Assembly: GCA_028717385.1 (NCBI GenBank)
Contig: JAQUNW010000001.1
Span: forward strand, 13,062-77,061
Reading direction: 5' to 3'
Length of the DNA stretch: 64,000 nucleotides
DNA from: Dehalococcoidales bacterium
Lineage (GTDB): Bacteria; Chloroflexota; Dehalococcoidia; Dehalococcoidales; CSSed11-197
Below are positions 17,299-61,738 of this stretch, one piece after another (the stretch's first letter is position 1; each line of letters opens with the position of its first letter). The position numbers were made by a program, and so were the translations under genes. Under the pieces are notes generated by a model. That model made no database searches, was not told the origin of the DNA, and saw only the letters and a program-made list of their open reading frames with translations.

Positions 17299-17401
17299 GT
17301 TAAAAAGTGCAATCCGGCGCCCTGACTGATAAGAAAGCCAAAATGATTCCCGCCACTACTTGCCTCACAGTCACTTCACAATAAAGGGGGCAAGTATTAC
17401 G

Positions 17402-19137: not shown

Positions 19138-19144
19138 GTTTTTA

Positions 19145-19153
19145 CCCCCCCCC
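19145..19153. repeat. C9/G9 homopolymer in the 5' leader of the regulator gene
   Basis: Read on the minus strand, GGGGGGGGG-TAAAAAC-ATG sits at the position of the ribosome-binding site. Confidence 0.8.
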
Positions 19154-19316
19154 TTCGATAGTCAATATAGCCATATAGTAATAACCACTATATAAATTGT
19201 ACCATGCCCTGCAATAGTCAAAATTACTAGCTTGACCTTGGGTGTATAATGAGAAAGGTATTTTATAAATGTATTAATAATAGAAAGATTGTCTAAAATA
19301 TATAATACATAAGTTT

Positions 19317-21449: not shown

Positions 21450-21568
21450 CGAACTTTCCACTACACTAATAAACCAAACATGACATAACGGTACACATCA
21501 AAGCTAAATCATCCAATTGAGAGGCATGTCTCGTTACTCAGATTTACATTTAGGGATGTAAATTGTAT

Positions 21569-21611
21569 CTTTTAATCAGGGTGTCACAGGTTCGAGACCT
21601 GTACGGCCTAC
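21569..21611 (+). repeat. Direct repeat copy 2 (attR-like partial tRNA-Lys 3' end)
   Basis: Identical 43 nt to 17192-17234. It lacks the 5' half of the tRNA, so it is not a functional tRNA. Confidence 0.9.
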
Positions 21612-22446
21612 TTCCAATCCTCCATTACCGCTTCTATTATCTCTATTTCTCAAATCCCGCAGCCAGGGAACATCCAAAAGAACCATCAAATTCTATAGGT
21701 ACCTGCTTATACCATTTACACAGACATGCACACTCTCACCCAATGACATATGCCAGTTCCTATCCACCAGGACCTGCACCAACGGCAAGAACGCCTACTA
21801 CAGATCCATAAGAGCCTTCTGCAACTGGCTGTACAGACAGGGATACATCACCGATAACCCTATAACAAAGGGAGACCCGCCCAGGATGAGGAAGGTCATC
21901 CTTCCGAGTCTTACCAGTGAACAGGTAACGTATCTGATAGATCAAGCAGATAATACCCGTGACAAAGCAATCATCAGCCTGCTTGCAGACTCAGGCATCC
22001 GTCTTAATGAACTCATCAACATCAAAGAAGAACATATAGACTTCGAAACCCAGAAAATCATTATCTGGGGCAAGGGCGCCAAGTAGCGGAAAGCTCCTTT
22101 CACATCAAGAACACTGAATCTCATAAATGAATATTTGAGCACCGCCAATAATGAGCGTTTCAATATGTGGAACATAAAAAGAAGAGGCATCCAGATCATG
22201 CTGTATAGACTGGAGAAGAGGATTGGTTTACGGTGTAATCCACATACATTCAGGAGGACTTTTGCCAGTAATTTGCATAGACAGGGACTGGACATAGAAC
22301 ATATCATGAGGCTTGGCGGGTGGGAGAGCCTGGATATGGTATTGAGGTATACAAGGTCAGTGAAGTTTGAGGAGAGTTTGAGGTTGTATCAGGGGGTTGG
22401 AGAGATAAAATGCACATTGTATAATTTGTGTACTTGTTGCTGTTAG
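21612..22446 (+). pseudogene. Tyrosine integrase pseudogene (5'-truncated, in-frame TAG)
   Basis: A single frame reads FLKSRSQGTSKRTIKFYRY...ICQFLS...RAFCNWLYRQGYITDNP...ADSGIRLNELINI...GKGAK*RKAPF...HTFRRTFAS...LGGWESLDMVLRY. There is no start codon, the frame abuts the repeat, and a TAG lies at 22084-22086. Confidence 0.8.
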
Positions 22447-22701
22447 TAAGTTTTGGAACTCATTTTATGCGATATAGCAAAATATGATTAGATCGACATG
22501 AATGTTCCACTAATTAGAGGAGAGAACATCAAGCTAATTTCTTACTTGTCTTCCGCACCGAGCGCAGAATTGCACTTCAGGGCTAATCTTTCTGCCACGT
22601 GAAAAACAATACTCATCAACGGATAACAATTCGCTTGATGGCTCTATGTGTTCAACTCGTTCAACATCCTCTATGATAGGTTCGATTTTGTATGATTCAT
22701 T

Positions 22702-23385
22702 TTAAGGTTGTTTCCAATGCCAATTCTTTTTACAATCTAAACAGTGCCCTCGCCAGAGATATTCATAACCAAGTTGAAGTTTCTCATTTTCATTATTTGC
22801 TTTTTCACTTACCGAATCCACAATGTTTCTACTTTGACAATAGGGGCACTTTTTTAATTTGTAATCCAAATATTCGTCTTCAAATTTTCCTCCACACCCG
22901 CCACAAGTATTACTTCTACCAGAAATAGCCCGTCCGCATTTTGAGCAAAGGTTCACACCCTGAAAATGTGTGTGTTGTTTTTGCGAGGTAGCAAAATTAC
23001 TTGTGTTTCCGTTACTTAATTCAAATTGTACGCCACATTTTGGGCAAAACAAATCATCGTCTTGTACGATAGTCCCACATTTCTCACAAATTGAATTGTT
23101 ATTGTTTTCGTAATCATATTTTTGTCTGTTGGCATCTTTGTTGGAATATATTATTGACCCTATTAAGCCCCCAGTGGTGAGAACAGCTCCAGTAGCTAAT
23201 AATGTTAATCCTAGGGTTTCTTTATTTTCACCAGATTTAATCCTGCTTTCGGTTGTTGAAGACCACACAGGTCTTGCTTCTTCAAGAGGTGTTAATTTTT
23301 GTAAATTCAAACCTTCCTGCCACTGAAACATCCCGATAGCAATAAAAACTATGCCGAAAGTCATAATTAGCACAAATTTCTTCAT
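22702..23385 (-). CDS. Membrane protein with two TM helices and four CxxC-pair zinc-ribbon motifs
   Basis: 227 aa. TM1 FVLIMTFGIVFIAIGMF and TM2 LTLLATGAVLTTGGLIGSII. These are followed by CEKC..CPKC, CSKC..CGGC, CPYC and CLDC. Confidence 0.6.
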   Translation of the reverse strand: MKKFVLIMTFGIVFIAIGMFQWQEGLNLQKLTPLEEARPVWSSTTESRIKSGENKETLGLTLLATGAVLTTGGLIGSIIYSNKDANRQKYDYENNNNSICEKCGTIVQDDDLFCPKCGVQFELSNGNTSNFATSQKQHTHFQGVNLCSKCGRAISGRSNTCGGCGGKFEDEYLDYKLKKCPYCQSRNIVDSVSEKANNENEKLQLGYEYLWRGHCLDCKKNWHWKQP

Positions 23386-23488
23386 TTAGTCTACTCCTAA
23401 CAATTTTGTAACATATTGTTTGTTTAAATATCCAAATAGTGTAGAAGCAGATATATTCCAATCAGTTACTATGGAATCTTTGTAATTA

Positions 23489-23905
23489 TTACTTTGGCTT
23501 CACGCTTCTTTTATTACTTGGCTTAGTTTTTACAGATGTTGTTTTTGGTTTGCTTGAGGTAGACTTTGATTTCGACTGACCGGTCTTATTCTGAGTAATT
23601 TTGGATTTTAATGGGGCACTCTTTAAGGTTGATATTTTGGGTTTAAATGTAGCGCCCTTCTTTTTATTACAAGGTGGACATAGCAATTGAAGATTAGCAG
23701 GATTATCTTTGCCACCTTTGGAAACAGGAGTTATATGATCAACTTCAAGAATATCTAATGGGAATTCTCTTCGGCACTTCTTACACCTGTAGCCTACTAC
23801 TCTTGTGGTTCCAAGCCATATATCCTCTTCAATATTTTCTTGGTTCTGATACTTGGCAATATTCTTTTTGTCAGCTTTGCTAAACCGAAGACGCATTTCT
23901 ATCAC
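23489..23905 (-). CDS. HNH endonuclease with Lys/Ser/Thr-rich basic tail
   Basis: 138 aa. CKKC...LEVDHITPVSKGGKDNPANLQLLCPPCNKKKG is a canonical HNH/His-Me finger. The C-terminal 55 aa or so are low-complexity K/S/T-rich. Confidence 0.8.
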   Translation of the reverse strand: MIEMRLRFSKADKKNIAKYQNQENIEEDIWLGTTRVVGYRCKKCRREFPLDILEVDHITPVSKGGKDNPANLQLLCPPCNKKKGATFKPKISTLKSAPLKSKITQNKTGQSKSKSTSSKPKTTSVKTKPSNKRSVKPK

Positions 23906-23911
23906 ACCTCA

Positions 23912-24823
23912 TTATTGATTACTAGCGGATGTATTAGATAATTTAGTACCACATTTAAAACAAAATCTATACTCGTCTTGGACTTCAGTACCACAATTAC
24001 TACAAGAAGATACCTCAAGTTTCTTTTTATTCAATAAAGTTCTATATTTACACTTAGGGAAATTTGAACAACATAAAAATGACTCTCCCGCATGAGCACC
24101 CTTTTTTGCTTCGCGCGTGATAAGTTTACCTTCTTTGCACTTAGGGCATATTTTTGGAGTGACGTCAGATCGTGCGACAATTGTGTTTAACATTATCGAC
24201 GATTTCGATTGTTCGGAATGCTTAGATTTTACAGTATGGATATGCTTAAGATGATCAGAGAAGTTTGTGATATTTTGGATTTCTTGTATGCTCTGATTAA
24301 ATTTTGCAACTTCTTCGTCGGTGAATATGACTTCTTTATGACTAACTATCTCTTTGATATAACTATAGCCATTTGAAAAAGCGCTAGTTTCACATATAAC
24401 TCCTTGAGGTTTTTCCTTCTTAAACTTGCATCCACCCCAAATATAGACTATGGCGAAAACATTCTCGGGGGGTATTGATAAATATTCAGACAACATGATC
24501 TTGTGTTTGTAATTCTGCCGAATGGGATTTGGGTAAGAAAACTTGCCACCATTAATAAAAACAGTCCAAGTTTTATCATGTAAGGAGCCGTATATAACAG
24601 AATCGCTATTCCATCTTTTTGTTTCTACTACGAAAATCCCATATCGAGAAACTATTACATGATCTATCTGTGTAGAATCATCAGCGTTTTTGATAAGAAC
24701 ATTGTCATATTTACGATGATACTTGGGATCGAGGATGGTCTGCACTAGTTTGGTTTGGGCTTCTCCGATAAATCCCTTGAAAGTAGACTCTATAGACATA
24801 ATTTGTATTTTAACTCCAGACAA
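23912..24823 (-). CDS. NERD-domain protein with topoisomerase-type C4 zinc finger and a C-terminal zinc ribbon
   Basis: 303 aa. NERD core GEAQTKL...QIDHVIVSRYGIFVVETKRW, then CPKCKEGKL...CCSNFPKCKY (zf-C4-Topoisom-like) and CSNCG...CFKCG. Confidence 0.8.
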   Translation of the reverse strand: MSGVKIQIMSIESTFKGFIGEAQTKLVQTILDPKYHRKYDNVLIKNADDSTQIDHVIVSRYGIFVVETKRWNSDSVIYGSLHDKTWTVFINGGKFSYPNPIRQNYKHKIMLSEYLSIPPENVFAIVYIWGGCKFKKEKPQGVICETSAFSNGYSYIKEIVSHKEVIFTDEEVAKFNQSIQEIQNITNFSDHLKHIHTVKSKHSEQSKSSIMLNTIVARSDVTPKICPKCKEGKLITREAKKGAHAGESFLCCSNFPKCKYRTLLNKKKLEVSSCSNCGTEVQDEYRFCFKCGTKLSNTSASNQ

Positions 24824-47264: not shown

Positions 47265-47909
47265 TTAGTATCCAGAAAATTCATCATATACTTGCATTTC
47301 ATATTCGTCCGAACTTTCCCATTCTTCCGGGGGTATAAATATCGGTATAAAGGCTGGTTTTTCAACGGTTTCCTGTTGTGCTTTCAAAGCTTTATGCTGC
47401 ATCATATACCACAAAGGCCATTCGTTTAGCCTAACCATTCCCGTGCCATCGCAGGCCTGGTCGGCAATTTGTTCTATAACAGGACGAGCTGCCACTGTTA
47501 CAGTTTGCGGATCATCTACATTGGTTAAAAAAGAAATATCGTATGATGATTTCAACTGCATGTTAGCCGGAATATTTACTACGACATACTGATTATCAAT
47601 CACATAACCGGTAGTATAATCAACTAATTGAAGGCTTAAATAGCCGTTTGCATCTGAATCACCAGTGTTTAACAGCGTGACGGTCACAGTAGTGAGATAG
47701 ACACGATAAATCCCGCAAACTGCCAGATAAGTGCCCCCAACAGTAGCCTCAACATTTCTTACGCTAACCCACGCCATGCTGGTGGTGGGGATCGAACCAT
47801 GTTCTTCGCATACCGGGCACGGTGCTTTAATAAACGCGGTTAGTGTAAGAAGTGGGATTATCGTAAAGAAAGCAATGAATTTTTTTTGTGCAGTAAATAT
47901 TTTCTTCAT
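47265..47909 (-). CDS. Hypothetical exported/anchored protein with CPVC motif
   Basis: 214 aa. N-terminal hydrophobic anchor, then CPVCEEHG and a beta-rich domain. An 11-nt gap separates it from the next gene. Confidence 0.55.
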   Translation of the reverse strand: MKKIFTAQKKFIAFFTIIPLLTLTAFIKAPCPVCEEHGSIPTTSMAWVSVRNVEATVGGTYLAVCGIYRVYLTTVTVTLLNTGDSDANGYLSLQLVDYTTGYVIDNQYVVVNIPANMQLKSSYDISFLTNVDDPQTVTVAARPVIEQIADQACDGTGMVRLNEWPLWYMMQHKALKAQQETVEKPAFIPIFIPPEEWESSDEYEMQVYDEFSGY

Positions 47910-48083
47910 ATCATCATACTACCCCCTACCACAATCAATGCAATCGGAAAATTGCTTCTGCTTTCATTCTACTAATTATAAAGAAAAATATCAAAGATTG
48001 TGCATATTTCCAACGTCTTACCAAGGGCTGCACAATCAGAGCAGCCCTTGGTAAATGGGAACCTGATTATTCCCTTCGTGAGT

Positions 48084-49043
48084 CTATGCGCATGCCAATA
48101 TTGCTCTCTTTACCAACGCAATTATAACCTGGCCCTTGTATTTATTTGCGTTGTTTGGCGGCAGAGGCACGGCGCCTGTGGCAGCGGCATTACCGGCTGC
48201 TTCTGCATTGGCAGCATTGATTGTTTTTCCCTTAATGGAATCTTGCGCGGCAGTGGCAATGCGCGGGATCCCATAGACTCCTCCCAGCACAATGCTTGCA
48301 TCACTGCTGCTGATAACTGCTGCGGCACTGACCAGAGGAAAATCAATTGCTTTTCTGAACGCAAACTTTTTATAGGCGCTTTTTGTTCCCGTTGCCGGAG
48401 CAGGTATTTGAATCTCGGTGATTATTTCATCATCATCCAAATTGTTGATCTTCTCTCCATTGTTACCAAAAAATTCGGTCGCTTCCCAGACTTTCTTTGT
48501 GGTGACGATTTTTGCCTTAAAGGCCACTAATGCCGGAGCGGTATCCGAAGGGCAGGGAGCAACACAGCCGTCTATGGCTCCGAATATTGAATGATATCGA
48601 TTCACACCTGTAAGAGCATTACAAATACCTTGCGGGTCCTTTCGCAAGCATTTGAAGTCGTTAAATTCATTGCGATAGTATATACAACGCGGTTTCTGGC
48701 AGATATTTCCTCCGATTGTGCCCATGTTTCTAAGTTCTGGAGACCCGACTGCTAATGCCGCCTGGGCTAAAGCGGTGTATTTTTCTTTTACTATACTCGA
48801 GTTGGCAATAGCTGTAAGCGTTGTAAGGGCCCCGATCTTGAGCATACCGCCATCTTCGCGAATATAAACAAGATCAGGTATTGTTTTGATGTTCACTATT
48901 ACTTCGGGCAGATTATCACTAATGAAACCTTTAAGACAAGTCATCAGATCGGTTCCACCGGCGACGACTTCAGCCTTGCCTTTCGCTAATTCGGCAGTTG
49001 CTTGAGATAGTGAGCTAACATTGATGTGAGTTATATTATCCAT
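48084..49043 (-). CDS. Molybdenum hydroxylase FAD-binding subunit (CoxM/XdhB/PaoB-like)
   Basis: 319 aa. VVAGGTDL, GTIGGNI and a CO-dehydrogenase flavoprotein C-terminal-like region. Confidence 0.85.
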   Translation of the reverse strand: MDNITHINVSSLSQATAELAKGKAEVVAGGTDLMTCLKGFISDNLPEVIVNIKTIPDLVYIREDGGMLKIGALTTLTAIANSSIVKEKYTALAQAALAVGSPELRNMGTIGGNICQKPRCIYYRNEFNDFKCLRKDPQGICNALTGVNRYHSIFGAIDGCVAPCPSDTAPALVAFKAKIVTTKKVWEATEFFGNNGEKINNLDDDEIITEIQIPAPATGTKSAYKKFAFRKAIDFPLVSAAAVISSSDASIVLGGVYGIPRIATAAQDSIKGKTINAANAEAAGNAAATGAVPLPPNNANKYKGQVIIALVKRAILACA

Positions 49044-49054
49044 CTTGCTTCCTC

Positions 49055-51325
49055 CTAACCCTTGCCTAATGCTTTGAGTACTCTGTCCGGGTTGGCACAG
49101 CCATGATCAGTATCAACCCACTTACCGGTAGCATTATAGATTGCGCAAATTATTGAAGCGTAACTGCCAACACAGGGTTCTCCAATACCATGAGCCCCAA
49201 GCGGCCCGGCAGCATCATCACCTTCAACTGGCAATAAATGGTGTTTGCTTGGCTTGCAATCCATGGTTGTAAGAAACTGTGCTTCAGTATATTGGCTGCT
49301 GATAACCGCTCCAGTAAGGGGATCATAGATATCACCATAGAACAAGGCCTGGTTAATCATCTGTTCAGTGCCTGATCCCATCTGGTTTTCAACGCCTTTC
49401 CGGAAGACGATACGGCCAGTACCAACGGAATTCCAGTGTTCGAGAACCTCAACTTGGCCGGTTTCAGGATCCACTGCAACTTCAGCAACTGAAGCACAAC
49501 CGCTATTGCAATTTACTAGCGTGCCGACTGGTAGCCCGAAAAGCTCCCGCTGTAAACCGCCTCCGTTGTCAGCGCTTGTTGAAGCCCAGCCTGTCCCATA
49601 ACCAGCAATTGGCGGGGTGCCGGACATAGCAGTCCGATACGTCATCCGCTTGGTGTCGTCATTCTTGTAAAATATTTCACTATTTTTAGCATCCAAATCA
49701 GTAATCTTGATTCCCGGAATATCCTTGAAAGGCGCTTTGAGAATGGCTTTAGCAAACACTTTTTCTCTGGCATCTCTGGCTGCATTTACCATAGACGATA
49801 GTCCACCGGTGAATGTTGAGCCACCGTGCATGCCGCCATCAAGGGTTACATCACTGTTCCCGTAATCACCACATTGCACGTCTTCATAGTTCATGCCCAT
49901 AACTTCAGCAACGAAATGCCTGGCTTCGGCGGGGGCGTTGTGAATTCCTGTGCCGCCTAATTCAAAAACGCATGTCCCATCTGCTTTCATCAGGACTAAA
50001 GCGCCTCTAGCTATGCCGTTTACAGTCCCGTGGCTATCATGATGGCAGTGTATGCCGATGCCGTGCAGTCTGCCGTCGGCCATGACATTGTTTTCACCGG
50101 GTTTATGCCATTTGGAAACATATCCACTTGCTTGAGCCACAGTTTCAAAACACTCATTGACCTCTTTGGCACCATAATACCAATTGGGCGAATCAAGAGC
50201 ACGCATATCTACAGGCATCAAATTTTTCTTTCGTATTTCATACGGGTTAATGTCGAGATGGGTGGCAAGTTTATCCAAGGCAGCGCTAATGTTTACACCA
50301 TTTGGCGGGTCAGAGACGCAGCGCCATGCCCCTCTATCCGGTACATTTATATAGGCACCCTTGCCACGCCACTTTACATGTGGAATGTTGAATGTGTGCT
50401 GTAAGCAAGGATTAATACCGGCGCCGGTACCATTTGTAAAATACTCAACATCTACAGCCGTGATAGTACCATCTGATTTTGCACCCCAGGTATATTTGGA
50501 ACGATGATCATGCTGGCGAATACGGAAAAGCATGCTGTGTTTCTTGGTGCATTTAAAGCAAACCGGAGCACCACCAACTGCTTTAGACATGAGTGCAGCC
50601 ACTCCTGCCTCCCAGTTAGAAAGGCGTGCACCATGGCCAGTGCTGCAATATCTCGCAATAGAGTGCACTTTATTTGACGTAGTTTCCAAATAGTTTACCA
50701 CTGCACTCTGGTTGCCGTGCAAGTTTTGTGAAGATTGATATACGTAACAATGATCGTTGAGCCAATATGCTGTAGCAATGTACTGCTCGATTGGCGCGTG
50801 TTGGTGAGTTGGTGTCCAATACTGTTCACATGTTAGGGTTGTGTCGGCTGCTGAGAAACCTGCTTCGATATTGCCTCGGTCAAAATTGGCGAGTGCAATG
50901 TTGGTATTTGCCCGCTTGCCACTCAGGGGGGCGTCATCACCAAGTTCGAACGCTTCATCCGGACCAGTTATTGCAGGCAAAAGCTCATACTCCACGTCAA
51001 TCAGATTGATAACGCGCAAAGCTTTATACCAGTCATCGGCTACAATGCCAACAATTGGCTGCCCCCAGAACAGTACATCGCTACTGAATATTGTAGGGGA
51101 GTCTTCATAAGTCAGGATTGCTTTAACCCCTGGCACAGCCAGGGCTTTTTGAGCATTTATACTTTTTATTTTGGCATGAGTTTCGGTTGCATGTTTACAT
51201 GCCCCCCAAAGCTTTTTACCTGATAAATAGTCTTCAGTAAATTCCGCTTTTCCTAGTAAAAGTGGATACGTTTTATGCTCGTAGGTTTCGGAGCTTCCCA
51301 GTATATTGAAGGGCGTTAAGGCCAT
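49055..51325 (-). CDS. Molybdopterin-binding large subunit of xanthine dehydrogenase/aldehyde oxidase family (PaoC/CoxL-like)
   Basis: 756 aa. a/b-hammerhead N-terminus (GKAEFTEDY...HAKIKSI), then GGGFG-family-like regions and a GIGEP motif near the C-terminus. Confidence 0.9.
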   Translation of the reverse strand: MALTPFNILGSSETYEHKTYPLLLGKAEFTEDYLSGKKLWGACKHATETHAKIKSINAQKALAVPGVKAILTYEDSPTIFSSDVLFWGQPIVGIVADDWYKALRVINLIDVEYELLPAITGPDEAFELGDDAPLSGKRANTNIALANFDRGNIEAGFSAADTTLTCEQYWTPTHQHAPIEQYIATAYWLNDHCYVYQSSQNLHGNQSAVVNYLETTSNKVHSIARYCSTGHGARLSNWEAGVAALMSKAVGGAPVCFKCTKKHSMLFRIRQHDHRSKYTWGAKSDGTITAVDVEYFTNGTGAGINPCLQHTFNIPHVKWRGKGAYINVPDRGAWRCVSDPPNGVNISAALDKLATHLDINPYEIRKKNLMPVDMRALDSPNWYYGAKEVNECFETVAQASGYVSKWHKPGENNVMADGRLHGIGIHCHHDSHGTVNGIARGALVLMKADGTCVFELGGTGIHNAPAEARHFVAEVMGMNYEDVQCGDYGNSDVTLDGGMHGGSTFTGGLSSMVNAARDAREKVFAKAILKAPFKDIPGIKITDLDAKNSEIFYKNDDTKRMTYRTAMSGTPPIAGYGTGWASTSADNGGGLQRELFGLPVGTLVNCNSGCASVAEVAVDPETGQVEVLEHWNSVGTGRIVFRKGVENQMGSGTEQMINQALFYGDIYDPLTGAVISSQYTEAQFLTTMDCKPSKHHLLPVEGDDAAGPLGAHGIGEPCVGSYASIICAIYNATGKWVDTDHGCANPDRVLKALGKG

Positions 51326-52146
51326 TATACACCTCCTTTAACGGCTTCTATGGTTTTCTTGAAGTTTCCGCATGAGCATATATGCCCAGAGAGAGCAAGT
51401 CGTACTTCATCTTCGGTCGGATTGGGCTTTACATTAAGAAGACCTTTAGCCGCCATTAAAAATCCTGGAGTGCAATAACCACACTGAACGGCATCGATTT
51501 TTTGGAATTTACTTTGCAAGGGACTGAGCTCGTGCCCGTCTGATATCCCTTCAACGGTCTCTATCTGAATTCCTTCAGCCTCGCGTGACAGCTTAAGGCA
51601 AGCATATATTGGCACTCCGTCCGCCAAAACTGTGCAAGCACCACATTGCCCCATGTCACAACCTATTTTAGTACCAGTAAGGCCTAACTGCTCCCTCAGA
51701 GTCCAGGCTAATGTTTCATGGTTGTTTACCCTTAATAGGTAATTTACTCCATTGACATTGAGTGTTACGATTGAAGGATCAAGCGGCTCTGCAACCAGAT
51801 GTTCACTTTCTATATGCGTTTTCAGTTCAGAAATCGATCCAAATTCAGTATTATCAAAGGGGCACACAAACTTGGTAATGGTCTCTACTTCACCAGGGTG
51901 AGCAGAATCAAGGTGCGATGCCAGCGCGCTGATTGAATCGAATTCCTGGCTACAAACAGGGCAAACAAAAGTAGCTTTTACTGTTGTAACCTGAACTGTT
52001 TTGGTAACTTCTTTTGTGACCTCTATCTCTCTGTCTTTGCATGCAGATAAGATAAAGGATGACCCAACAGCAGTACCTCCAACAATGATTCCTGCATTTT
52101 TTAGAAATTGCCTTCTTGATACTTGGCTTATTTCATTTTCAGGCAT
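51325..52146 (-). CDS. [2Fe-2S] small subunit of the Mo hydroxylase, with TAT signal, lipobox and two C2H2-like repeats inserted
   Basis: 273 aa. SRRQFLK twin-arginine motif and lipobox ILSAC. Repeats FVCPVCSQEFDSISALASHLDSAH and FVCPFDNTEFGSISELKTHIESEH. Ferredoxin motifs GCDMGQCGACTV and QCGYCTPG. Confidence 0.85.
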   Translation of the reverse strand: MPENEISQVSRRQFLKNAGIIVGGTAVGSSFILSACKDREIEVTKEVTKTVQVTTVKATFVCPVCSQEFDSISALASHLDSAHPGEVETITKFVCPFDNTEFGSISELKTHIESEHLVAEPLDPSIVTLNVNGVNYLLRVNNHETLAWTLREQLGLTGTKIGCDMGQCGACTVLADGVPIYACLKLSREAEGIQIETVEGISDGHELSPLQSKFQKIDAVQCGYCTPGFLMAAKGLLNVKPNPTEDEVRLALSGHICSCGNFKKTIEAVKGGV

Positions 52147-52423: not shown

Positions 52424-52816
52424 ACCGATAATCCTCCCATTTTTCGATAGTAACCAACTTTTCCCTATATTTTTTAAACCACCTCCTTTTTTGTATTCAA
52501 GTAATCATCTTTAAGCTATCAAGCATTGATTTTAATAAGGTGAGATTTTTTCGTTCACATTTGCAGTTGTTAAAGGTCTAATTACCAGAAATATGCTTCG
52601 ATATATAAAACTTGAAAGTGACGTTATATTCAATATGTTAGTATGGAATCTTAAAAATTACATCGGTCATGCTGGTAAAAGATGATTAGAAACATGGGTA
52701 ATACGCTGATAAAAATAAATAGATAAATGGGTATTATGGGTACCCTTTTTGGTAAAAGTACTTGTTATTCTTGGAGTCTATTGTATAATGGTATCAGTAC
52801 ATTAAGCAGATTTGGC

Positions 52817-53473
52817 ATGAATGAGAGTGAAACCAATAATGGTCTCCAGATTATTATCGTTCATCCAACTGAAATCGTCAGGCTTGGATTATGTGCTCTA
52901 TTTGAAAAGTGCGAGTATTTGGTATATCGCTCATTTGAAGCTTGTGACTCTCTTTTTAGCCAACTAAAATGGTTTCCTAATGCGCTTATTTTGGTGCACC
53001 ACTCACTCTGCCAGCATCAAGGAAGTATTCGTAAAGTAATTGAGCATACCGGAGCAACAATTGCCCTGATAGCATCCAGCGATTTAGCTCATAATGACAG
53101 CTTTCAGGATTTATCAGAAAAAATTGAAGAAGGCGTTACTGGTTTCATCGATTTAAATGAACCTTTGCACATATTCCTCTCTAAAATTGAAGATATCGCT
53201 TCGGGCAGTTTTGTTATTTCAAAAAGCTTTGTCAGCCAGCTTACCGAAAAAAACGTTCCGAATTACAAAGACATCAATGAAATCCTTAATGACAGAGAAT
53301 TGGAAATTCTGGACCTGGTTGCCAATGGGAGTACAAATAAGGAGATTGGGCAAAAGCTATATATTTCAGAGCATACAGTCAAATCATATATTAGCCAGAT
53401 TCTCACCAAGCTTGATCTTAAAAACAGGCAGCAAGCTGCTGTATATTTAATCAAAAACAGAATGGACGTATAG
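52817..53473 (+). CDS. LuxR-family regulator with atypical (probably non-phosphorylatable) receiver-like domain
   Basis: GerE HTH LNDRELEILDLVANGSTNKEIGQKLYISEHTVKSYISQILTKLDLKNRQQA. In the receiver-like N-terminus the usual phospho-acceptor Asp context reads LILVHHS. The start is taken at the Met at 52817. Confidence 0.7.
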   Translation: MNESETNNGLQIIIVHPTEIVRLGLCALFEKCEYLVYRSFEACDSLFSQLKWFPNALILVHHSLCQHQGSIRKVIEHTGATIALIASSDLAHNDSFQDLSEKIEEGVTGFIDLNEPLHIFLSKIEDIASGSFVISKSFVSQLTEKNVPNYKDINEILNDRELEILDLVANGSTNKEIGQKLYISEHTVKSYISQILTKLDLKNRQQAAVYLIKNRMDV

Positions 53474-55276: not shown

Positions 55277-55305
55277 TTGACATAGGCACTTGCCTGTACG
55301 ATAAT
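55277..55305 (+). promoter_or_regulatory. Sigma-70-like promoter upstream of rdhA
   Basis: TTGACA (55277-55282), a 17-nt spacer, then GATAAT (55300-55305). Flanked by and overlapping the 10-bp inverted repeat TATTATCGTA/TACGATAATA. Confidence 0.45.
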
Positions 55306-55387: not shown

Positions 55388-56785
55388 ATGAAAAAATATC
55401 ACTCTACCGTCACGCGCAGAGATTTCCTAAAGGCGCTTGGGCTTGGTGGAGCAGGTGCTGGGCTGGCATCAATTCTTCCCCCTTTCACCAACCAGCCAAT
55501 CAGAGACCTTGATGAGCTGATGTCGCTTCCAATTGCCGGCATGAAAAGACCTTCCTGGGTAAAAACCGTTGAGAAACCAACTGTTGAAATCGATTGGCCC
55601 ACTATAGAACGTTTTGATTACCACCATGTTATGTGGGCAGCGGGCTTAAAGCGAGCGCTAGGGTCGCAACAATATGACCAGGTTTTTGTAGATGGCCGGG
55701 TAAACCGCAGGCAATGGATTGCAGACAATAAGCCCGGCTCCAGGTTACAGGACGTGGCCATGAAAGAAGCTAACCATTACGCTCCTGTATCATTTATAGG
55801 GCCACAGACATCACCCACTCCGGAAAGCCTTCAAGTACCTCGTTACGAAGGAACGCCAGAAGAAAATGCTCGGCTGGTAACAGCCTTTATGCGCCTTCAT
55901 GGAGCAAGCCACGTCGGCTTTGTTGAGCTGGATACTGATACCACCGAAAAACTTATATATTCTTACGATACTGGATCAGGAGAGAAGCAGGGTCCCCGTT
56001 TAGATATACTTGATTATGACGTGCCGGTAGAAAATTTGGCAGAAGGTTATCGGATCATACCCAAAAAAGCCAGATGGGTTATCGTATATACTCTTAGAAT
56101 GGCCGATGAGCTTATGAAGAGGCCAATTACAGAAGTGGGAGATAGATCTCACTACTATATGTATAACCTCAAGTCTCTTCTGCAGGGGCAGCTGCAAAAT
56201 TTCATGCGGACACTTGGTTATATGTGCCTTGGGGAAGCCGCCAACTTTAACGCTTTGGGTGTACATACCGGTTTTGCTGTAATGGCAGGCTTGGGAGAAA
56301 TGAGCCGAGTTGGGCATACAATAACTCCTGAATATGGACTGCAGCAAAGGGTTCAAATTGTAATTACCGATCTTCCTTTACCGTCCGGAAAGCCAATCGA
56401 TTTTGGATTACATGTATTTTGTAAAACCTGTAAAAAATGTGCGGATCATTGTCCGGCGAAAGCCATCAATCCTGCAACGGAACCAACATGGGATAACGGT
56501 GGGCTTTTTTATCGAGCCATCGGGATAAAACGCTGGTGGTTAAATGAACCTCTTTGCAACGCATATATCAGAAGGGTAAATGGTTGTGCAACCTGCTTTG
56601 CAGTATGCCCATTCTCAAAACGCCATAACATGTCATACAATGATTTATTCAGGAGGAGCGTAGCTTCTAATCCAGCTATGAACAGATTCTGGCGCAAAGC
56701 GGATGATTTCTTCTACGGAAGCGGCATTCACAGTGATTCCAACAAGTTTTGGGAGCTTGATTTACCGCCTTTTGGATATGATTGA
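55388..56785 (+). CDS. rdhA: Reductive dehalogenase catalytic subunit
   Basis: 465 aa. TAT signal TRRDFLKALG. Two Fe-S motifs, CKTCKKCADHCP and C...CATCFAVCP. Overall Dehalococcoidia-type RdhA layout. Confidence 0.92.
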   Translation: MKKYHSTVTRRDFLKALGLGGAGAGLASILPPFTNQPIRDLDELMSLPIAGMKRPSWVKTVEKPTVEIDWPTIERFDYHHVMWAAGLKRALGSQQYDQVFVDGRVNRRQWIADNKPGSRLQDVAMKEANHYAPVSFIGPQTSPTPESLQVPRYEGTPEENARLVTAFMRLHGASHVGFVELDTDTTEKLIYSYDTGSGEKQGPRLDILDYDVPVENLAEGYRIIPKKARWVIVYTLRMADELMKRPITEVGDRSHYYMYNLKSLLQGQLQNFMRTLGYMCLGEAANFNALGVHTGFAVMAGLGEMSRVGHTITPEYGLQQRVQIVITDLPLPSGKPIDFGLHVFCKTCKKCADHCPAKAINPATEPTWDNGGLFYRAIGIKRWWLNEPLCNAYIRRVNGCATCFAVCPFSKRHNMSYNDLFRRSVASNPAMNRFWRKADDFFYGSGIHSDSNKFWELDLPPFGYD

Positions 56786-56816: not shown

Positions 56817-57122
56817 ATGTTTTTATCAGGAATGCTGATAGGCATGGCAGTCCTCGGACTGGTAGTGTTCATTGTAATTAAGAGTATCCCTGTTCGCTGG
56901 TACGAATGGCTATTGGGAACGCTCGGTCTTGGATTATTGCTATTTTCATTACAAAACACGGTTTCTGCAGGCCAGGAATACTGGCCAGGCGCACCTTTAA
57001 TATTCTTTTTAGTTTTTGGTATTCCAGCATTATTGATGATTGGTATTGCCATTGGATTGTCAGTTTTCAGGATCCTAAAGTCTAATCATGCAAACGCTGA
57101 TAACAATATAACCGGTAAATGA
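56817..57122 (+). CDS. rdhB: Reductive dehalogenase membrane anchor
   Basis: 101 aa with three TM helices and a RWYEW motif after TM1. Lies directly downstream of rdhA with a GGAGGG RBS. Confidence 0.85.
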   Translation: MFLSGMLIGMAVLGLVVFIVIKSIPVRWYEWLLGTLGLGLLLFSLQNTVSAGQEYWPGAPLIFFLVFGIPALLMIGIAIGLSVFRILKSNHANADNNITGK

Positions 57123-57862
57123 AAGTCTATCACCTGGCTTATGACAAAGCAGCAGCTTCGGTAAACATCCATTTTTGGACCAAATGCAGTTTCAATTGCC
57201 GTTCTTGTTACGTACCATATAACCACCTCGACTTCGGTTTGTTTGATGATCCTTTATCTATCATGCACGGCGATAAGATAAAAAAACCTGATCAACAGTT
57301 TCTTTCTGTAATACGTGTGATGGAATTGCTGCAACCACATGTAATAAAAAGCGCAGTATTTATGGGAACAGAACCATCGCTTGACACTGAAATGCCGAAA
57401 CTGGCGAAACTATTGCATATAGAGCATGGCAGTTATAACATACTTCTTACCAATGGTTATTATCTTCCAGATATATCACACATCAATGAAATAATAATTT
57501 CCATAAAAGCAATGACGCCATCAATTCACCAAAATTACACAGGTAAATCCAACCAACTTGTACTTGATAATTTTAAATCTATATATGCTTCAGGAACCAA
57601 GGTACAGGTCGAAACCGTTTTCATTCCTGGTCTGATTGAAGAAGTTGAAATTGAAAATATAGCTAATTTTATTGCCAAAACTGATGAAAATATTCCCCTC
57701 AGAATTGATGCATATTTTCCTGTCGGTAATAGCGAGTGGCCTGCCGCAGAGAATATACAAGTACAAAAAGCAGCTGAAAACGCCAGGCGCTACCTTAAAA
57801 ATGTAAATTGCCTTACTCTTGATATGAAACGCATCGGGGAAAAATCCGTAAGGTTATACTGA
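57119..57862 (+). CDS. Radical SAM enzyme, glycyl-radical-activase-like (PflA/NrdG-like size and motifs)
   Basis: 247 aa. CSFNCRSC is a CxxxCxxC cluster motif near the N-terminus, and AVFMGTEPSLD resembles the GGEP SAM-binding motif. Its ATG overlaps the rdhB stop (ATGA at 57119-57122). Confidence 0.8.
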   Translation: MKVYHLAYDKAAASVNIHFWTKCSFNCRSCYVPYNHLDFGLFDDPLSIMHGDKIKKPDQQFLSVIRVMELLQPHVIKSAVFMGTEPSLDTEMPKLAKLLHIEHGSYNILLTNGYYLPDISHINEIIISIKAMTPSIHQNYTGKSNQLVLDNFKSIYASGTKVQVETVFIPGLIEEVEIENIANFIAKTDENIPLRIDAYFPVGNSEWPAAENIQVQKAAENARRYLKNVNCLTLDMKRIGEKSVRLY

Positions 57863-57863: not shown

Positions 57864-59633
57864 ATGCCAATTACTCAATGTGTACAAAGCAAACAACCAT
57901 ATATGATACCAAATGAAAATGCTCAGTACTTGCTTGAAAAATACTATCTCGACAATGCTAGTAACGAAACTCCTGAACAATTGATTCGAAGGGTAGCAAA
58001 AGTATTGGCATCTACGGAAATTAAAAACGGTGGGCACAGAGCAACTCTTTACTGGGAAGAGACCTTTTACTCGTTATTGTCCAATATGGATTTTTTACCC
58101 GGATCACCGTTTTTACTTAATGCGGGCAAAAACTCCGGGCAGCTGGCTTCCTGCCATTGCATTCCGGTTTCTTCAGAAGAAAACAATTATATGGCTTCCC
58201 TGGAAATAGCAAAAAGCGTTCAAATCAATGGCAGTGGAACTGCATTTAATTTTTCCAAACTTCCTTCTGCTAGCAACAACAACGTTAGTAAATCCGAAGC
58301 CCCGGTTATTCAACTTCTCTACAAATTTTCCCGAGTACTTGGAAGTTTTTTACAGGGTGGAATACGAATCGGTTGTAATACCGCAATTCTAAGTGCCCAC
58401 CATCCGGATATCAGAGAGTTTATACAAGCTAAAACCGACAAGCAAGTTTTGAATAACTTTTATCTTACTGTCTCGTTAACTGATTTGTTTATGAATTCAC
58501 TATTGAAGAAGGAAACATACCCTCTATTTGACCCAATATCCGGACAGGAAACAGGCAAAATTGCAGCAGGTGATATTTTTAACGCTATTGTTGAAGCATC
58601 ATGGAATAATGGTGATCCAGGAGTAATATTTCAGGATACTATTGATGCATCTAATCCTATTCCATCGCTTGGCCAACTAGAGGCAGTCAGCGGTTGCGGT
58701 GAACAATTAATGATGGAAGGGGAGTGCTGTTTCCTGGGCAGTATAAACTTGGTAAACATGGTACACCAGAATCAATTAGAAGTAGCCGAAATTAACTGGG
58801 GCAAGCTTAAACGCACGGTATGCATAGCTTTAAGATTGCTGGATAATGCTATCGACATTTCAACTTATGCTTCTCCTGAAATCGAACACGTTACAAAACT
58901 GGGAAGAAAAGTAGGCTTGGGGATAATGGGCCTGGCAGATCTATTATATTTGCTCGATATCCCTTATAACTCAAAAAAAGCGATGGAAACGACAGAGCAA
59001 ATTTTAAAATATATCAAAAAGTGCGCATATTTTTATTCTAACCACCTTGGTGACCAAAAGGGAACTTGCCCTGTATACCAAGACGGTAGCCAAAACACCA
59101 ACAGAAGAAACGCTTCTATCACTACTATTGCCCCCACTGGTACGATTAGCACCATTGCTGGATGTTCTGCCGGAATTGAACCGGCCTTCAGGCTGGTTTA
59201 CCTGAGAAGGTTGGCGGATGGTAAGGAGTTACTGGAGGTTAATCCCCACTTTGTCAATAATATTATTAGGGAAAAACTCAATGTCTCATTAATTCTCAGG
59301 CAATTGCTTTCAGGGAAGCCGCTCCAAGAAATAGGTGGTGTTCCGGAACACATTAAAAAAGTATTCGTTACTGCACAGGATATTTCACCAGAATGGCATT
59401 TGAATATTCAGCATTCCGCCCAAAAACATATTGATAATGCTGTTTCGAAAACTGTTAATCTTGATAATAATGCGTCCAGAGCGGAAATCCGGCAAATATA
59501 TCTCAAAGCGTATAAATTGGGTTTGAAAGGAATCACCGTCTACCGGGACATGAGCAGAGAAAACCAGCCTCTGGTGTGTTCTGGGGAGGGACTTGATTTA
59601 CTGAACAGATGGTTAAAAGATAAAGGCTTCTAA
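57864..59633 (+). CDS. Class II (adenosylcobalamin-type) ribonucleotide reductase-like protein, divergent
   Basis: 589 aa. FLPGSPFLLNAG...LASCHCIPV, GSGTAFNFSKL, HHPDIREFIQAKTD, SGCGEQ...ECCFLGSINL, TIAPTGTISTIAGCSAGIEP and GLKGITVYRD. The start lies 1 nt after the rSAM stop. Confidence 0.8.
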   Translation: MPITQCVQSKQPYMIPNENAQYLLEKYYLDNASNETPEQLIRRVAKVLASTEIKNGGHRATLYWEETFYSLLSNMDFLPGSPFLLNAGKNSGQLASCHCIPVSSEENNYMASLEIAKSVQINGSGTAFNFSKLPSASNNNVSKSEAPVIQLLYKFSRVLGSFLQGGIRIGCNTAILSAHHPDIREFIQAKTDKQVLNNFYLTVSLTDLFMNSLLKKETYPLFDPISGQETGKIAAGDIFNAIVEASWNNGDPGVIFQDTIDASNPIPSLGQLEAVSGCGEQLMMEGECCFLGSINLVNMVHQNQLEVAEINWGKLKRTVCIALRLLDNAIDISTYASPEIEHVTKLGRKVGLGIMGLADLLYLLDIPYNSKKAMETTEQILKYIKKCAYFYSNHLGDQKGTCPVYQDGSQNTNRRNASITTIAPTGTISTIAGCSAGIEPAFRLVYLRRLADGKELLEVNPHFVNNIIREKLNVSLILRQLLSGKPLQEIGGVPEHIKKVFVTAQDISPEWHLNIQHSAQKHIDNAVSKTVNLDNNASRAEIRQIYLKAYKLGLKGITVYRDMSRENQPLVCSGEGLDLLNRWLKDKGF

Positions 59634-59690: not shown

Positions 59691-60668
59691 TTATGGTAAA
59701 GGTTGCACACCTTTCGCGTTGACAACGGCTCCTGTAAAATATTTAAAAGACTGCCAATTATACATTAATGTGTCCAGTGCGCCAGAGATCGAGTCTTTAT
59801 CTGTGCCGGAAATAACCCAACAAGTGTTTTGACATGAGCCCGTACCTGTGGGGTTAAAAGGATTTTGTATTGTATAAATTAGTCCTGTTCCGGAAGTCTC
59901 TTCGTGGATACAATTTCCGTTTGAATCGTATATCTCCAGAACGTCTTTGTTGAATCTGCAAAACAACCCAAGCCGGCTCCAGTTATCATTTATTTCGCGT
60001 ATGGGATCAAATAAATCTGAGCCAATAACAATCAAGTGATGCGTCTGTTTTTCGCTTATGGTTATTTGACTGGATTCGCACATAAATATTTTCTTAATAC
60101 CCATAGCGATAAGAGCTTGCTGTAATTCATGCGCCTCGTTGTGCCAGCCAACCTCATACCAAATCGTTAAAGGTACATTTATGCCTCCGTATCCGTATTT
60201 TAAAGAACTGGGGAAATCGCTAATAATTGCGCTAGCCGAAGGCCGAAAACTCCAATCACGATAGTACCAATGAATGGTATCACCATCTCTTATGCGATAA
60301 GCAAGCCCTCCGGCGTTAGATAAAATTCCATTGATATATAAGAACCAGTCCTTTCTTTCAACTGGGTGTTTAAGATAACCACTTGCGATCCCTTGTATGG
60401 ACGTTACAAATCCTCCACCATACGCAGTTTTAACATCAAGTTTTTGAGACAATAATTCAAGGCAGTTTGTCCCTTCTCGGACAATGACTTCATTATCAAA
60501 AATAACATTCCTACCAAAATTTTCACTGACTATGAGTTGGGCAGTTATCTGGGTACTTTGCGCTGCAGAGTTCGTTACTGGGGTTGATGAGAGTTGACCT
60601 GTGCAACCGTTAAATACAACAGCGAGTATAAATAATAAACTTACAATAGTAGATTTTTTTATTTCCAT
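59691..60668 (-). CDS. Lipoprotein with DUF4430 (transcobalamin beta-domain-like) module
   Basis: The start is taken at MEIKKSTIVSLLFILAVVFNGC (lipobox FNGC). DUF4430-like region VIVREGTNCLELL...AYGGGFVTSIQGI...WFLYINGILSNAGGLAYRIRDGDTIHWYY. Confidence 0.7.
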   Translation of the reverse strand: MEIKKSTIVSLLFILAVVFNGCTGQLSSTPVTNSAAQSTQITAQLIVSENFGRNVIFDNEVIVREGTNCLELLSQKLDVKTAYGGGFVTSIQGIASGYLKHPVERKDWFLYINGILSNAGGLAYRIRDGDTIHWYYRDWSFRPSASAIISDFPSSLKYGYGGINVPLTIWYEVGWHNEAHELQQALIAMGIKKIFMCESSQITISEKQTHHLIVIGSDLFDPIREINDNWSRLGLFCRFNKDVLEIYDSNGNCIHEETSGTGLIYTIQNPFNPTGTGSCQNTCWVISGTDKDSISGALDTLMYNWQSFKYFTGAVVNAKGVQPLP

Positions 60669-61738
60669 CGCCTTCTGGTATTGATGTATAGAAAAGTAAT
60701 CATAGATGCTATTAGCACAGTGAGTATCAGCCATAACCACCAGCTATTGTTGCTGGTCCTTTCCACAGGATAACCACAACCTGCCAAGGCTATGATTGAA
60801 TCAGCAGTAGTTTTTTCAGGCATGGCCAAATATCCCTCCGGCAAAGGAGAAGCAAACATAAAAGAACCATCTTCGCTCTGCATGCTAAGGATATATGTCA
60901 CCGGATTAGCATCATCCTCACCGGTGAGTGAAGCAGTTATATCCAGAGTAGCCAGAGCACTCATAACCCAAGCAGTAGAACTGGTGTTTTCAACACCATA
61001 AGATACGTATCCTCCATTTACTCCCTGCATAGTTTCAATGGCTGCAAGCGCCTTCTGGATACGTTCATCATTCGGATTAATACCTGCTTTTATGAGCGCC
61101 ATAATTGCTGCGGCAGTGTTATCCGGATCACTTTCGTAATACCACTCATTATGAGGTATTGCCCATGACCAACCATTATCGTCTCCCTGGTTTTCTAAGA
61201 GATATGAAGTAGTAGCGGTAATGATTTCATCATCAGGTGAATAACCTGCACCTATCAATGCGATTAATGCCCAAAAATCCTCGTTAATACTATCTTTTTC
61301 TCCAAATTGAGTTCCGTCATGCAATTTAACCAGGGCATCTATGAAATCCCCACCTGGTACAACATTGTTCCCTTCCCCAAATGAACGAGGTGACTGCCCT
61401 GAAGCTACTATCGCTAATACATTTCTAGCCAGATCTGCGGTTATATTGTAAGAATCCAACAGTTGGTGGTTGTTTTGTTTTAGAAAATCAATGGGTGAGG
61501 GGGAACCAAATCGGGCTGGATTCTTACCACAAGCGGCCAGAGCCATCACTGCCCATGCTGTGTCAGAATAACTGCCAATACTGCCATCGGTAGCTTGCAT
61601 CTCTGATAAATATGACAAAGCCTTCTTAATTGGCTTATCTGTGCCTTTGAATGGGTACCCGCTCGAACATGAAGAAAGCACTAAAGAAATGGTTAGAATC
61701 AGACATATAGATATTAATCGTGTTTTGCGCGCGTACAT
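60659..61738 (-). CDS. Lipoprotein with prenyltransferase/terpene-cyclase-type alpha-alpha toroid repeats and a C-terminal TM anchor
   Basis: 359 aa. Lipobox LSSC. Repeats QATDGSIGS, HDGTQFG, QGDDNGWSW, MQGVNGGYV, QSEDGSF. C-terminal helix WWLWLILTVLIASMITFLYI. Overlaps the next gene by 10 nt. Confidence 0.7.
   Translation of the reverse strand: MYARKTRLISICLILTISLVLSSCSSGYPFKGTDKPIKKALSYLSEMQATDGSIGSYSDTAWAVMALAACGKNPARFGSPSPIDFLKQNNHQLLDSYNITADLARNVLAIVASGQSPRSFGEGNNVVPGGDFIDALVKLHDGTQFGEKDSINEDFWALIALIGAGYSPDDEIITATTSYLLENQGDDNGWSWAIPHNEWYYESDPDNTAAAIMALIKAGINPNDERIQKALAAIETMQGVNGGYVSYGVENTSSTAWVMSALATLDITASLTGEDDANPVTYILSMQSEDGSFMFASPLPEGYLAMPEKTTADSIIALAGCGYPVERTSNNSWWLWLILTVLIASMITFLYINTRRRWK

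Follow-up and report, generated by a model that had tools for sequence, protein, structure and literature searches.

A radical SAM-coupled NrdJ-like lineage of the Dehalococcoidia that departs from canonical class II ribonucleotide reductases at the catalytic finger loop

Ribonucleotide reductases (RNRs) fall into classes that are defined by the way in which the thiyl radical is generated, and the relation of class II, which uses adenosylcobalamin (AdoCbl), to class III is a long-standing evolutionary question. Four described systems bear on the locus considered here: the canonical dimeric class II enzymes (NrdJ; 1XJE, 3O0O), the class III pair NrdD/NrdG together with glycyl-radical enzymes and activases of the pyruvate formate-lyase (PFL) type, the rdhF-I genes of Dehalococcoides mccartyi, and the Zur-type metal-sparing paralogues. 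A stretch of 64,000 nucleotides from a Dehalococcoidales bacterium (GCA_028717385.1, contig JAQUNW010000001.1, positions 13,062 to 77,061; hereafter the window; the features of the operon described below lie on its forward strand) encodes at 57864-59633 a NrdJ-like (class II RNR-like) protein of 589 aa, whose gene directly follows that of a radical S-adenosylmethionine (SAM) protein. The open reading frame (ORF) is an intact, selected member of a radical SAM-coupled lineage that is distinct from the housekeeping NrdJ. This lineage is confined to the Dehalococcoidia, where it is passed on together with the gene of a 247-aa radical SAM enzyme as a unit of two genes; the fold of that enzyme is closest to that of the PFL activase. 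The gene pair is probably a two-part radical enzyme rather than the normal DNA-precursor enzyme of the cell. The reading of the protein as a paralogue is well supported; that its chemistry is altered, and that the radical SAM partner initiates its radical, we infer from the features described below. No report of a radical SAM partner for a NrdJ-like protein, or of the motif changes described here, was found among the papers searched. The scaffold is that of a class II RNR; its radical SAM partner, finger-loop signature, absent tail and genomic settings are not those of that class. The genes are known by name only as rdh accessory genes.

The NrdJ-like protein and its finger loop

The 589-aa ORF matches the Pfam family Ribonuc_red_lgC (E 1.6e-91) and, as a second match, Ribonuc_red_lgN (E 2.1e-14), and it scores 485.8 bits against the TIGR02504 NrdJ_Z model, the cutoff of which is 399.95. 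Its closest relative of solved structure is the NrdJ of Thermotoga maritima (1XJE; phmmer, E 8.9e-81), which is also the top Foldseek match (template modelling (TM) score 0.84) of an AlphaFold2 (AF2) model with a predicted local distance difference test score (pLDDT) of 89.2 and a predicted TM score (pTM) of 0.91. A database copy from a metagenome-assembled genome of the Dehalococcoidales (P0001, 576 aa) is 100% identical to the window protein and is annotated as an adenosylcobalamin-dependent RNR. This NCBI gene model begins at Met14, an alternative start of the window ORF at 57903; the ATG at 57864 lies 1 nt past the stop codon of the radical SAM gene, a spacing that is typical of the family. 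The protein ends in a short tail (DMSRENQPLVCSGEGLDLLNRWLKDKGF, 59547-59630) with a helix predicted at residues 574-586. The 27 aa after the YRD block contain one Cys and do not form a C-terminal reductant-shuttle element, and Pfam detects no Cys-rich TSCPD domain (PF12637) in the protein. No second RNR gene was found within the 64-kb window.

Alignments made with phmmer to 1XJE and with MAFFT to 120 homologues yield identical motif columns. The T. maritima residues N320-P321-C322-G323-E324 correspond to S276-G277-C278-G279-E280 of the window protein (58689-58703; AVSGCGEQ on STNPCGEI in the phmmer alignment); the thiyl Cys and the Glu of the finger loop are kept, and Asn is replaced by Ser and Pro by Gly. 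The first redox-active Cys is present as C97 (58152-58154; SCHCIPV on ACFVVPV), the equivalent of T. maritima C134 and E. coli C225, and is near-invariant across the short clade described below. The second, C289, lies in E287-C288-C289-F290-L291-G292 (58722-58739; ECCFLGS on EACNLGS) and is the equivalent of T. maritima C333 and E. coli C462; the Asn that follows it is replaced by F290, a change confined to the subclade of the window protein. The phmmer alignment also pairs GSGTAFNFSKLPS of the query with GGGVGSNFSELRP of the T. maritima enzyme. TIAPTGTIS, KGITVYRD, FLPGSPFLLNAG and the phosphate motif SP..LNAG are all retained.

These alignments bear out a preliminary description of the locus, made from the sequence alone, according to which the protein keeps the thiyl Cys and the Glu and has lost the canonical Asn: the loss is upheld by the multiple alignment that it called for, against T. 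maritima NrdJ and against 57 canonical NrdJ sequences. The motif stretches that it quoted are all real and were rightly interpreted, as judged by phmmer and MAFFT, and the blocks that it called well kept (ECCFLGSINL among them) are indeed retained. An Asn at a shifted position, which it had named as the finding that would count against it, is ruled out by two independent alignments, in which the residues GQLEAVSG before C278 contain no Asn. The substitution is not an accident of chance or sequencing, because S-G-C-G-E is common to all nine members of the subclade and the ratio of nonsynonymous to synonymous substitution (dN/dS) of the gene is 0.14.

In E. coli numbering, the PASV preprint names N437, C439, E441 and C462 as residues considered essential and takes P438 as the diagnostic residue of class II. 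The window protein departs from this signature, N437-P438-C439-E441-C462 being represented by S276-G277-C278-E280-C289. Compared with the canonical dimeric enzymes (1XJE, 3O0O and the Dehalococcoidales protein P0057), with which it is 31-45% identical, it shares the fold, the thiyl Cys, the Glu, the redox cysteines, the phosphate motifs, the TVYRD block and the beta-hairpin. By contrast, it differs in the S-G-C-G-E finger, in loop 2 (RRGA to IRIGC), in the replacement of an Asn by Y200 and in the replacement of effector-site residues, and its gene differs in lacking the TSCPD domain and an NrdR neighbour, in having a radical SAM partner and in evolving much faster.

The short clade and its effector site

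The 120 best homologues and the window protein together split into 57 canonical and 64 short sequences. The canonical proteins are 740-900 aa long and carry a C-terminal TSCPD domain, STNPCGEQ, RRGA and CNLG, whereas the short ones are about 550-660 aa long and lack TSCPD. The subclade to which the window protein belongs has nine members (the window protein itself, its identical copy P0001, and P0002-P0008); the counts given here treat the other 55 short proteins and eight subclade sequences separately, P0001 being dropped as a duplicate. Position 276 is Asn in 57/57 canonical proteins, and it is Ser in 36, Cys in 14, Thr in 4 and Asn in 1 of the 55 short proteins and Ser in 8/8 of the subclade. 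Position 277 is invariably Pro in the canonical set (57/57), Gly in 54 and Pro in 1 of the 55, and Gly in 8/8. At position 171 in loop 2, Ala (57/57) gives way to Cys (55/55 and 8/8); at position 200, Asn (57/57) gives way to Tyr (53/55 and 8/8); and at position 85, Met (57/57) gives way to Leu (54/55 and 8/8). Y200 (58461-58463) is thus a clade-specific Tyr that aligns with a canonical-invariant Asn (T. maritima N242). The window protein displays all the traits by which the short clade is defined here, namely a length of about 590 aa, C171, Y200, G277, the lack of a TSCPD domain, and a radical SAM gene immediately upstream.

The finger motif S/C/T-G-C-G-E is present in 54 of the 55 further members, including P0027 of D. 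mccartyi (ITGCGEQ) and P0113 of Dehalogenimonas formicexedens, both annotated as NrdJ. The preliminary description had allowed that its reading would fail if S-G-C-G-E were common among active NrdJ enzymes of this clade; the motif is indeed common in the clade, but no member has been characterised as active. A profile of the short clade was also searched against 1.84 billion representatives, and the best 150 (representatives at 50% identity) were inspected by regular expression: 145 have NPC, two are of the SG type, both in the short clade, and three have other residues. The recount by regular expression replaced hmmalign results that had suggested many non-NP finger loops, an artefact of inteins inserted at the catalytic Cys. 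S-G-C-x-E is therefore widespread within the short clade, and the closest NrdJ relatives outside it essentially lack the motif. Under the PASV rule, in which N437 is essential and P438 diagnostic, no part of the short clade would count as bona fide.

In a neighbour-joining tree the short clade is monophyletic in 76/94 bootstraps, and the subclade of the window protein is nested within it as a monophyletic group on a long branch in 94/94. Mean identity is about 59% among members of the short clade and 46-57% in the subclade. The housekeeping enzyme is represented by P0057, an 872-aa canonical NrdJ with TNPCGEQ and TSCPD whose gene stands last in the order mraZ-rsmH-ftsA-ftsZ-NrdR-nrdJ, on a contig about 1.1 Mb long. 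The 120 closest relatives of this protein share 68-82% identity with it; wherever a source is given, it is Dehalococcoidales, Dehalococcoidia or Chloroflexi. The earlier view that the protein is a paralogue and not a standard RNR is thus supported by the monophyly of the short clade, by a separate canonical NrdJ and by the conserved radical SAM partner.

In a codon comparison between two loci of the same gene order as the window (L003 and L011), the RNR-like gene has a dN/dS of 0.14; the values of its radical SAM partner gene and of rdhA are 0.16 and 0.08. The RNR-like gene is under purifying selection and is not decaying. A duplicated nrdJ that persists only as a decaying remnant without function might be expected from the long branch, from the loss of several canonical motifs and from a divergence faster than that of its neighbours (49-59% identity among syntenic loci, compared with 80-90% for rdhA), but the low dN/dS, the intact frame with catalytic residues invariant in 9/9 subclade members, the confident fold prediction and the conserved gene order with the partner make such a remnant very improbable.

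A further feature of the clade is that the second redox Cys (the equivalent of E. coli C462) is replaced by Ser, Ala or Thr in about a fifth of its members, D. mccartyi P0027 and 12 others, which would rule out the usual disulfide-based turnover in these proteins. Two single ORFs, P0357 (1600 aa) and P0358 (1351 aa), each contain two tandem NrdJ-like units, one of them with NPCGEQ in unit 1 and NVCGEQ in unit 2; they could be fusions or gene-calling artefacts.

A stronger argument than the Asn against a general RNR role of the window copy appears to lie in its lost effector-site residues. In the loop 1/effector-site region (residues 121-148, INGSGTAFNFSKLPS..., 58224-58307), which is modelled with low confidence, T. 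maritima K158 aligns with I121, GGGxG with GSGTA, and R171-P172 with P134-S135. In loop 2 (residues 163-175, LQGGIRIGCNTAI, 58350-58388), QGGIRIGCNTA is placed on QGSRRRGALMG (LQGGIRIGC on KQGSRRRGA), so that K202 is replaced by Leu, R206 and R208 by Ile, and A210 by C171, the clade-invariant Cys. The T. maritima residues D141, K158, R171, K202, R206 and R208 occupy positions at which conservation among the 57 canonical proteins is 90% or higher in every case, and their equivalents in the window protein are S, I, P, L, I and I; the canonical allosteric site is not preserved. Across the subclade, GGGTG becomes GSGTA, LRP becomes (L/I)P(S/A) and CNLG becomes CFLG, with D141 replaced by S/N, K158 by I/Q/L, K202 by L/R/M and R208 by I/C/T; all of these positions reach the same level of conservation in the canonical set, and most of them are still kept by the wider short clade. 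The replaced positions are those that, as we understand Larsson et al. 2004, presumably form the deoxyribonucleoside triphosphate effector site (loop 1) and the specificity-relay loop 2, the latter, we assume, linking the effector and substrate sites near the active site. If these roles are right, the window protein would be unable to balance four substrates, because the effector-site and loop 2 residues are replaced. In class II enzymes, effector binding also helps to close the enzyme around B12 (PMC11067019).

These sequence features bear on the possibility that the protein is an ordinary AdoCbl-dependent RNR isozyme, a conditional (e.g., zinc-sparing) backup in which Ser, Cys or Thr stands in for Asn and the radical SAM protein is a maturase or unrelated. 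Such an isozyme would account for the TIGR02504 score above cutoff, the T. maritima NrdJ fold, the retention of C278, E280, C97, C289, the phosphate-binding motifs and the cofactor hairpin, and the purifying selection. It is difficult to reconcile with an Asn437 that the field holds to be essential, with the absence of the second redox Cys from roughly one in five clade members (D. mccartyi P0027 among them), and with a subclade that lacks the residues for balancing four substrates.

The radical SAM partner and radical initiation

The radical SAM gene (57119-57862; PF04055) encodes a 247-aa protein with one CX3CX2C motif at C23/C27/C30, which, as its single Fe-S motif, makes it a minimal single-cluster enzyme. 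Its AF2 model (pLDDT 88.9) finds E. coli PFL activating enzyme at the top of a Foldseek search (3C8F, 3CB8 and 8FO0; E 1e-12, TM 0.65-0.73), and the two proteins have the same length. The family comprises 178 database matches, nearly all exactly 247 aa long and 50-69% identical. When the alignment of this family was scanned against one genome per GTDB species, 19 loci were obtained, all from the Dehalococcoidia. The sequence continues downstream of the radical SAM gene in 17 of them, and in 14 of these 17 the next gene is RNR-like. The stop codon of the radical SAM gene and the start of the RNR-like gene are separated by -1 to +3 nt in 13/19 loci. From the RNR side, each neighbourhood retrieved has the radical SAM gene immediately upstream, or, in D. 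mccartyi, in the same cluster; 20 short-clade RNR-like clusters agree with a radical SAM cluster in the length of their longest contig; and, over 14 loci, pairwise identities among the RNR-like proteins correlate with those among the radical SAM proteins (r = 0.90). The association of the two genes is real and conserved rather than a coincidence of position. No further conserved partner gene beyond it was found in L010, L013 and L021. An ordinary isozyme would leave this near-obligate, translationally coupled partner unexplained.

The arrangement recalls class III NrdD/NrdG and the glycyl-radical enzymes with their PFL-type activases, in which a Cys-finger barrel likewise adjoins a small single-cluster radical SAM gene. 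The pattern G-C-x-E also occurs in the Cys loop of glycyl-radical eliminases. However, the window protein differs from NrdD in having no glycyl-radical domain or motif, in belonging to the class I/II family PF02867 and in being preceded by the activase-like gene. The clade-specific changes cluster at the finger loop and loop 2, where N-P becomes S/C/T-G in a presumably flexible G-C-G loop and C171 and Y200 are new. Because C278, E280, C97, C289 and both phosphate-binding motifs are intact, the protein would be expected to perform thiyl-radical chemistry on a phosphorylated ribosyl (nucleotide-like) substrate. It is tempting to speculate, and this is the mechanism preferred here, that the radical SAM partner generates or regenerates the catalytic radical on the RNR-like subunit, as NrdG does on NrdD, but on a class II scaffold. 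With the effector site gone, the window copy most likely would handle a single substrate, in a role accessory to organohalide respiration and tied to the dehalogenase operon. Taken as a whole, the view that the protein is a radical SAM-coupled paralogue performing thiyl chemistry on one nucleotide-like substrate, with its radical supplied through the partner, is favoured tentatively, at somewhat less than an even chance. A bolder version, which we consider unlikely, is that the pair represents a new type of RNR initiation, in which a PFL-activase-like enzyme would furnish the thiyl radical of a class II barrel, with SAM in place of adenosylcobalamin, via the G-C-G loop or Cys171/Tyr200; this would be a B12- and zinc-independent class II/III hybrid, of which the window copy would be a single-substrate derivative used in organohalide respiration.

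Several observations weigh against the favoured view. No RVxG[FYW] glycyl-radical motif occurs in the 64 short-clade C-termini, and because both domain and motif are absent, a classical activase-to-glycine mechanism has no obvious target. The NCBIfam matches of the radical SAM protein to glycyl-radical-enzyme activases are weak (E about 1e-11) and cover the C-terminal half only, NifB, MoaA, viperin and QueE stand close behind the PFL activase in the fold search, and the protein could act on a small molecule instead. The RNR-like protein exceeds the NrdJ_Z cutoff and keeps most canonical-invariant positions, including the beta-hairpin that is said to bind the class II cofactor, and AdoCbl binding may persist, to judge from these residues. 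The co-occurrence of canonical and short forms is seen at the level of the order. One short member linked to a radical SAM gene, P0017 (L008, 4658-6433), keeps STNPCGEQ, yet its loop 2 Cys is present (RRGC). The preliminary description had coupled the loss of the Asn to the unusual partner; the partner is real and conserved, but P0017, which retains both N-P and partner, shows that the tie is not strict. Finally, the radical SAM gene occurs without an RNR-like gene in three loci, L019, L025 and L027. In L025 (Dehalogenimonas sp. XYDCF, CP139473.1) and L027, both from Dehalogenimonas, it is followed by btuF and tblastn detects no RNR-like gene, while the related Dehalogenimonas loci L007 and L020 have an RNR-like gene at the site that is empty in L025. 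In L019 (2584-4204) there is a tandem duplication of the radical SAM gene, each copy about 49% identical to that of the window, with no RNR-like gene nearby.

Genomic settings of the gene pair

In the window the pair closes an operon of the order rdhA-rdhB-rSAM-RNRlike (rSAM, radical SAM), the successive gaps being 31, -4 and +1 nt. A promoter-like site (TTGACA-17-GATAAT, 11/12, 55277-55305), recognised by its match to the consensus, is the candidate operon promoter. The first gene, rdhA (55388-56785), encodes a reductive dehalogenase catalytic subunit with a twin-arginine translocation (TAT) signal and two Fe-S motifs (TIGR02486, 240 bits with a cutoff of 160; PF13486) and is 80-90% identical to rdhA of the syntenic loci L003, L005 and L011. 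The second (56817-57122) encodes a rdhB-like membrane anchor of 101 aa and overlaps the start of the radical SAM gene by 4 nt; the window protein has no Pfam match, and its orthologues in L003 and L005 belong to PF27193 VcrB (BLAST identity 53%). Between L003 and L011, dS of rdhB is 0.09, compared with 0.39-0.55 in the flanking genes, and dN/dS is 0.82; the low dS could reflect recent exchange or conversion, or noise from 104 codons.

A comparable set of genes is found in the rdhF-I system of D. mccartyi, where RNR-like and radical SAM genes likewise accompany rdhA and rdhB, a family that is defined by synteny only; the letters F-I (rdhF/G/I-type) are assigned to specific genes here by assumption. 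The D. mccartyi RNR-like protein P0027 falls in the short clade and is 45% identical to that of the window, and the radical SAM proteins are 34-35% identical (E about 1e-45). The D. mccartyi locus (L001) has the order RNRlike-MIase-rSAM-rdhA-rdhB-rSAM, in which both radical SAM proteins are homologous to that of the window. By contrast, the window has rdhA-rdhB-rSAM-RNRlike with one radical SAM gene only and without a MIase-like gene, and the D. mccartyi protein differs in its T-G-C-G-E finger and in having lost the second redox Cys. More widely, the pair lies upstream of rdhAB in L008, L016 and L021 (the rdhA downstream of P0017 in L008 being in fragments), and between a hydrogenase cluster and btuF-fecCD-btuD-cobD in L007 and L020.

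These settings raise the possibility that nucleotide reduction has been lost and that the protein takes part in corrinoid handling or RdhA maturation, e.g., by de-adenosylating adenosylcobamide with its thiyl Cys and passing cob(II)amide to the apo-dehalogenase, with the radical SAM protein modifying the cofactor or a protein. This would be in keeping with the position of the pair beside rdhAB in the window, L001, L003, L005, L008, L011, L016 and L021, with its position beside the BtuF-FecCD-BtuD-CobD corrinoid uptake genes, with the conserved DUF4430 and alpha-toroid neighbours of the operon described below and with the loss of the allosteric site. The Dehalococcoides literature also lists rdhF-I as presumed maturation or corrinoid genes, roles that are guessed (PMC5574268). 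However, these functions are annotations only, many members adjoin neither rdh nor B12 genes (L006, L012, L013, L014), and a cofactor chaperone needs no redox cysteines, no Glu and no pair of nucleotide-phosphate motifs, all of which have been kept under purifying selection; this role is accordingly regarded as distinctly unlikely.

A third setting points elsewhere. In seven loci (L006, L008, L012, L014, L016, L017, L022) the pair directly follows, with gaps of about 0-100 bp, genes for a Fur-family regulator and an AztABC-like zinc ATP-binding cassette (ABC) transporter, the metal of which is deduced from sub-threshold NCBIfam matches (AztC, AztB, AztA; AztB 272 bits, cutoff 280). The Cys-rich TSCPD domain, absent from the short clade and present in the canonical enzymes, has been described as a zinc finger. 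As in Zur-type metal-sparing paralogues, the genes of these seven loci are co-oriented and nearly contiguous and the short form lacks TSCPD, which suggests that in these loci the pair is a zinc-sparing paralogue; the window copy differs in lying outside such an operon. To our knowledge, no radical SAM partner has been described for any zinc-sparing paralogue. For the wider clade, the zinc context and the missing TSCPD fit the logic of metal-sparing paralogues (PMC2770081) and thereby favour the isozyme considered above, but the window copy stands in a rdhAB operon and not in a zinc operon, and the gene is absent at the syntenic site of a complete Dehalogenimonas genome. On balance the ordinary isozyme is doubtful, though it deserves serious consideration. 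Control of the pair by a riboswitch, which would argue for a B12-independent isozyme, was rejected, none having been found beside the pair: no cobalamin or other riboswitch was detected at the gathering threshold in the window or in nine loci, nor did searches with E values relaxed to 0.1-1 reveal one ahead of rdhA or in the surroundings of L006 and L020 (in the latter including the interval between the RNR-like gene and btuF). The sole riboswitch matches are in L025, one above threshold elsewhere in the locus and two tandem Cobalamin aptamers (8816-9168; 29.8 and 33.3 bits, scanned in L025 alone) upstream of btuF.

On the reverse strand, convergent to the operon, lie genes for a DUF4430 protein (59691-60740) and an alpha-toroid protein resembling SQHop_cyclase and prenyltransferases (60659-61738), as identified by Pfam; the two ORFs together span 59691-61738 and overlap by 82 nt. 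The order rdhA-rdhB-rSAM-RNRlike followed by this convergent pair is conserved in the window, L003/L004, L005 and L011. Genes for EamA and an M29 peptidase come next in the window and in L003; L005 has the peptidase without EamA, and L011 ends earlier. Transcobalamin-type B12 binders consist of an alpha-toroid and a small beta domain, and by analogy the DUF4430 and alpha-toroid proteins could be a split corrinoid-binding pair; no solved-structure relative of the DUF4430 protein was found by sequence. These neighbours may also be functionally outside the system. About 1.9 kb upstream of the rdh operon, a gene at 52727-53473 encodes a LuxR/GerE-type regulator of 248 aa.

Elsewhere in the window, a region at 17161-24823 opens with a tRNA gene (17161-17233), immediately behind which lies a tyrosine-integrase gene (17360-18544). 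A low-GC stretch (34-37% compared with about 45%) comes next and encodes zinc-ribbon proteins, a NERD nuclease and a protein of the Schlafen/AlbA_2 type; the region resembles a genomic island inserted at the tRNA. A molybdenum hydroxylase cluster (xanthine dehydrogenase family) occupies 47265-52146 on the reverse strand; its 2Fe-2S subunit (51325-52146) has an unusual architecture, with a TAT-type signal and two C2H2 zinc-finger-like motifs before the ferredoxin domains.

Together with the radical SAM enzyme to which it is coupled, a class II scaffold that lacks the "essential" Asn and has acquired a new fixed Cys and a new fixed Tyr provides a clonable two-protein system with which to address the relation between classes II and III. 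The short proteins pass the NrdJ threshold and are annotated as B12-dependent RNRs, also in Dehalococcoides mccartyi. Tallies of cobamide-dependent enzymes, and metabolic models built for these bioremediation organisms, may be wrong as a result. Leads on the function of the rdh accessory genes come from the repeated occurrence of the pair beside rdhAB, corrinoid uptake and zinc uptake genes.

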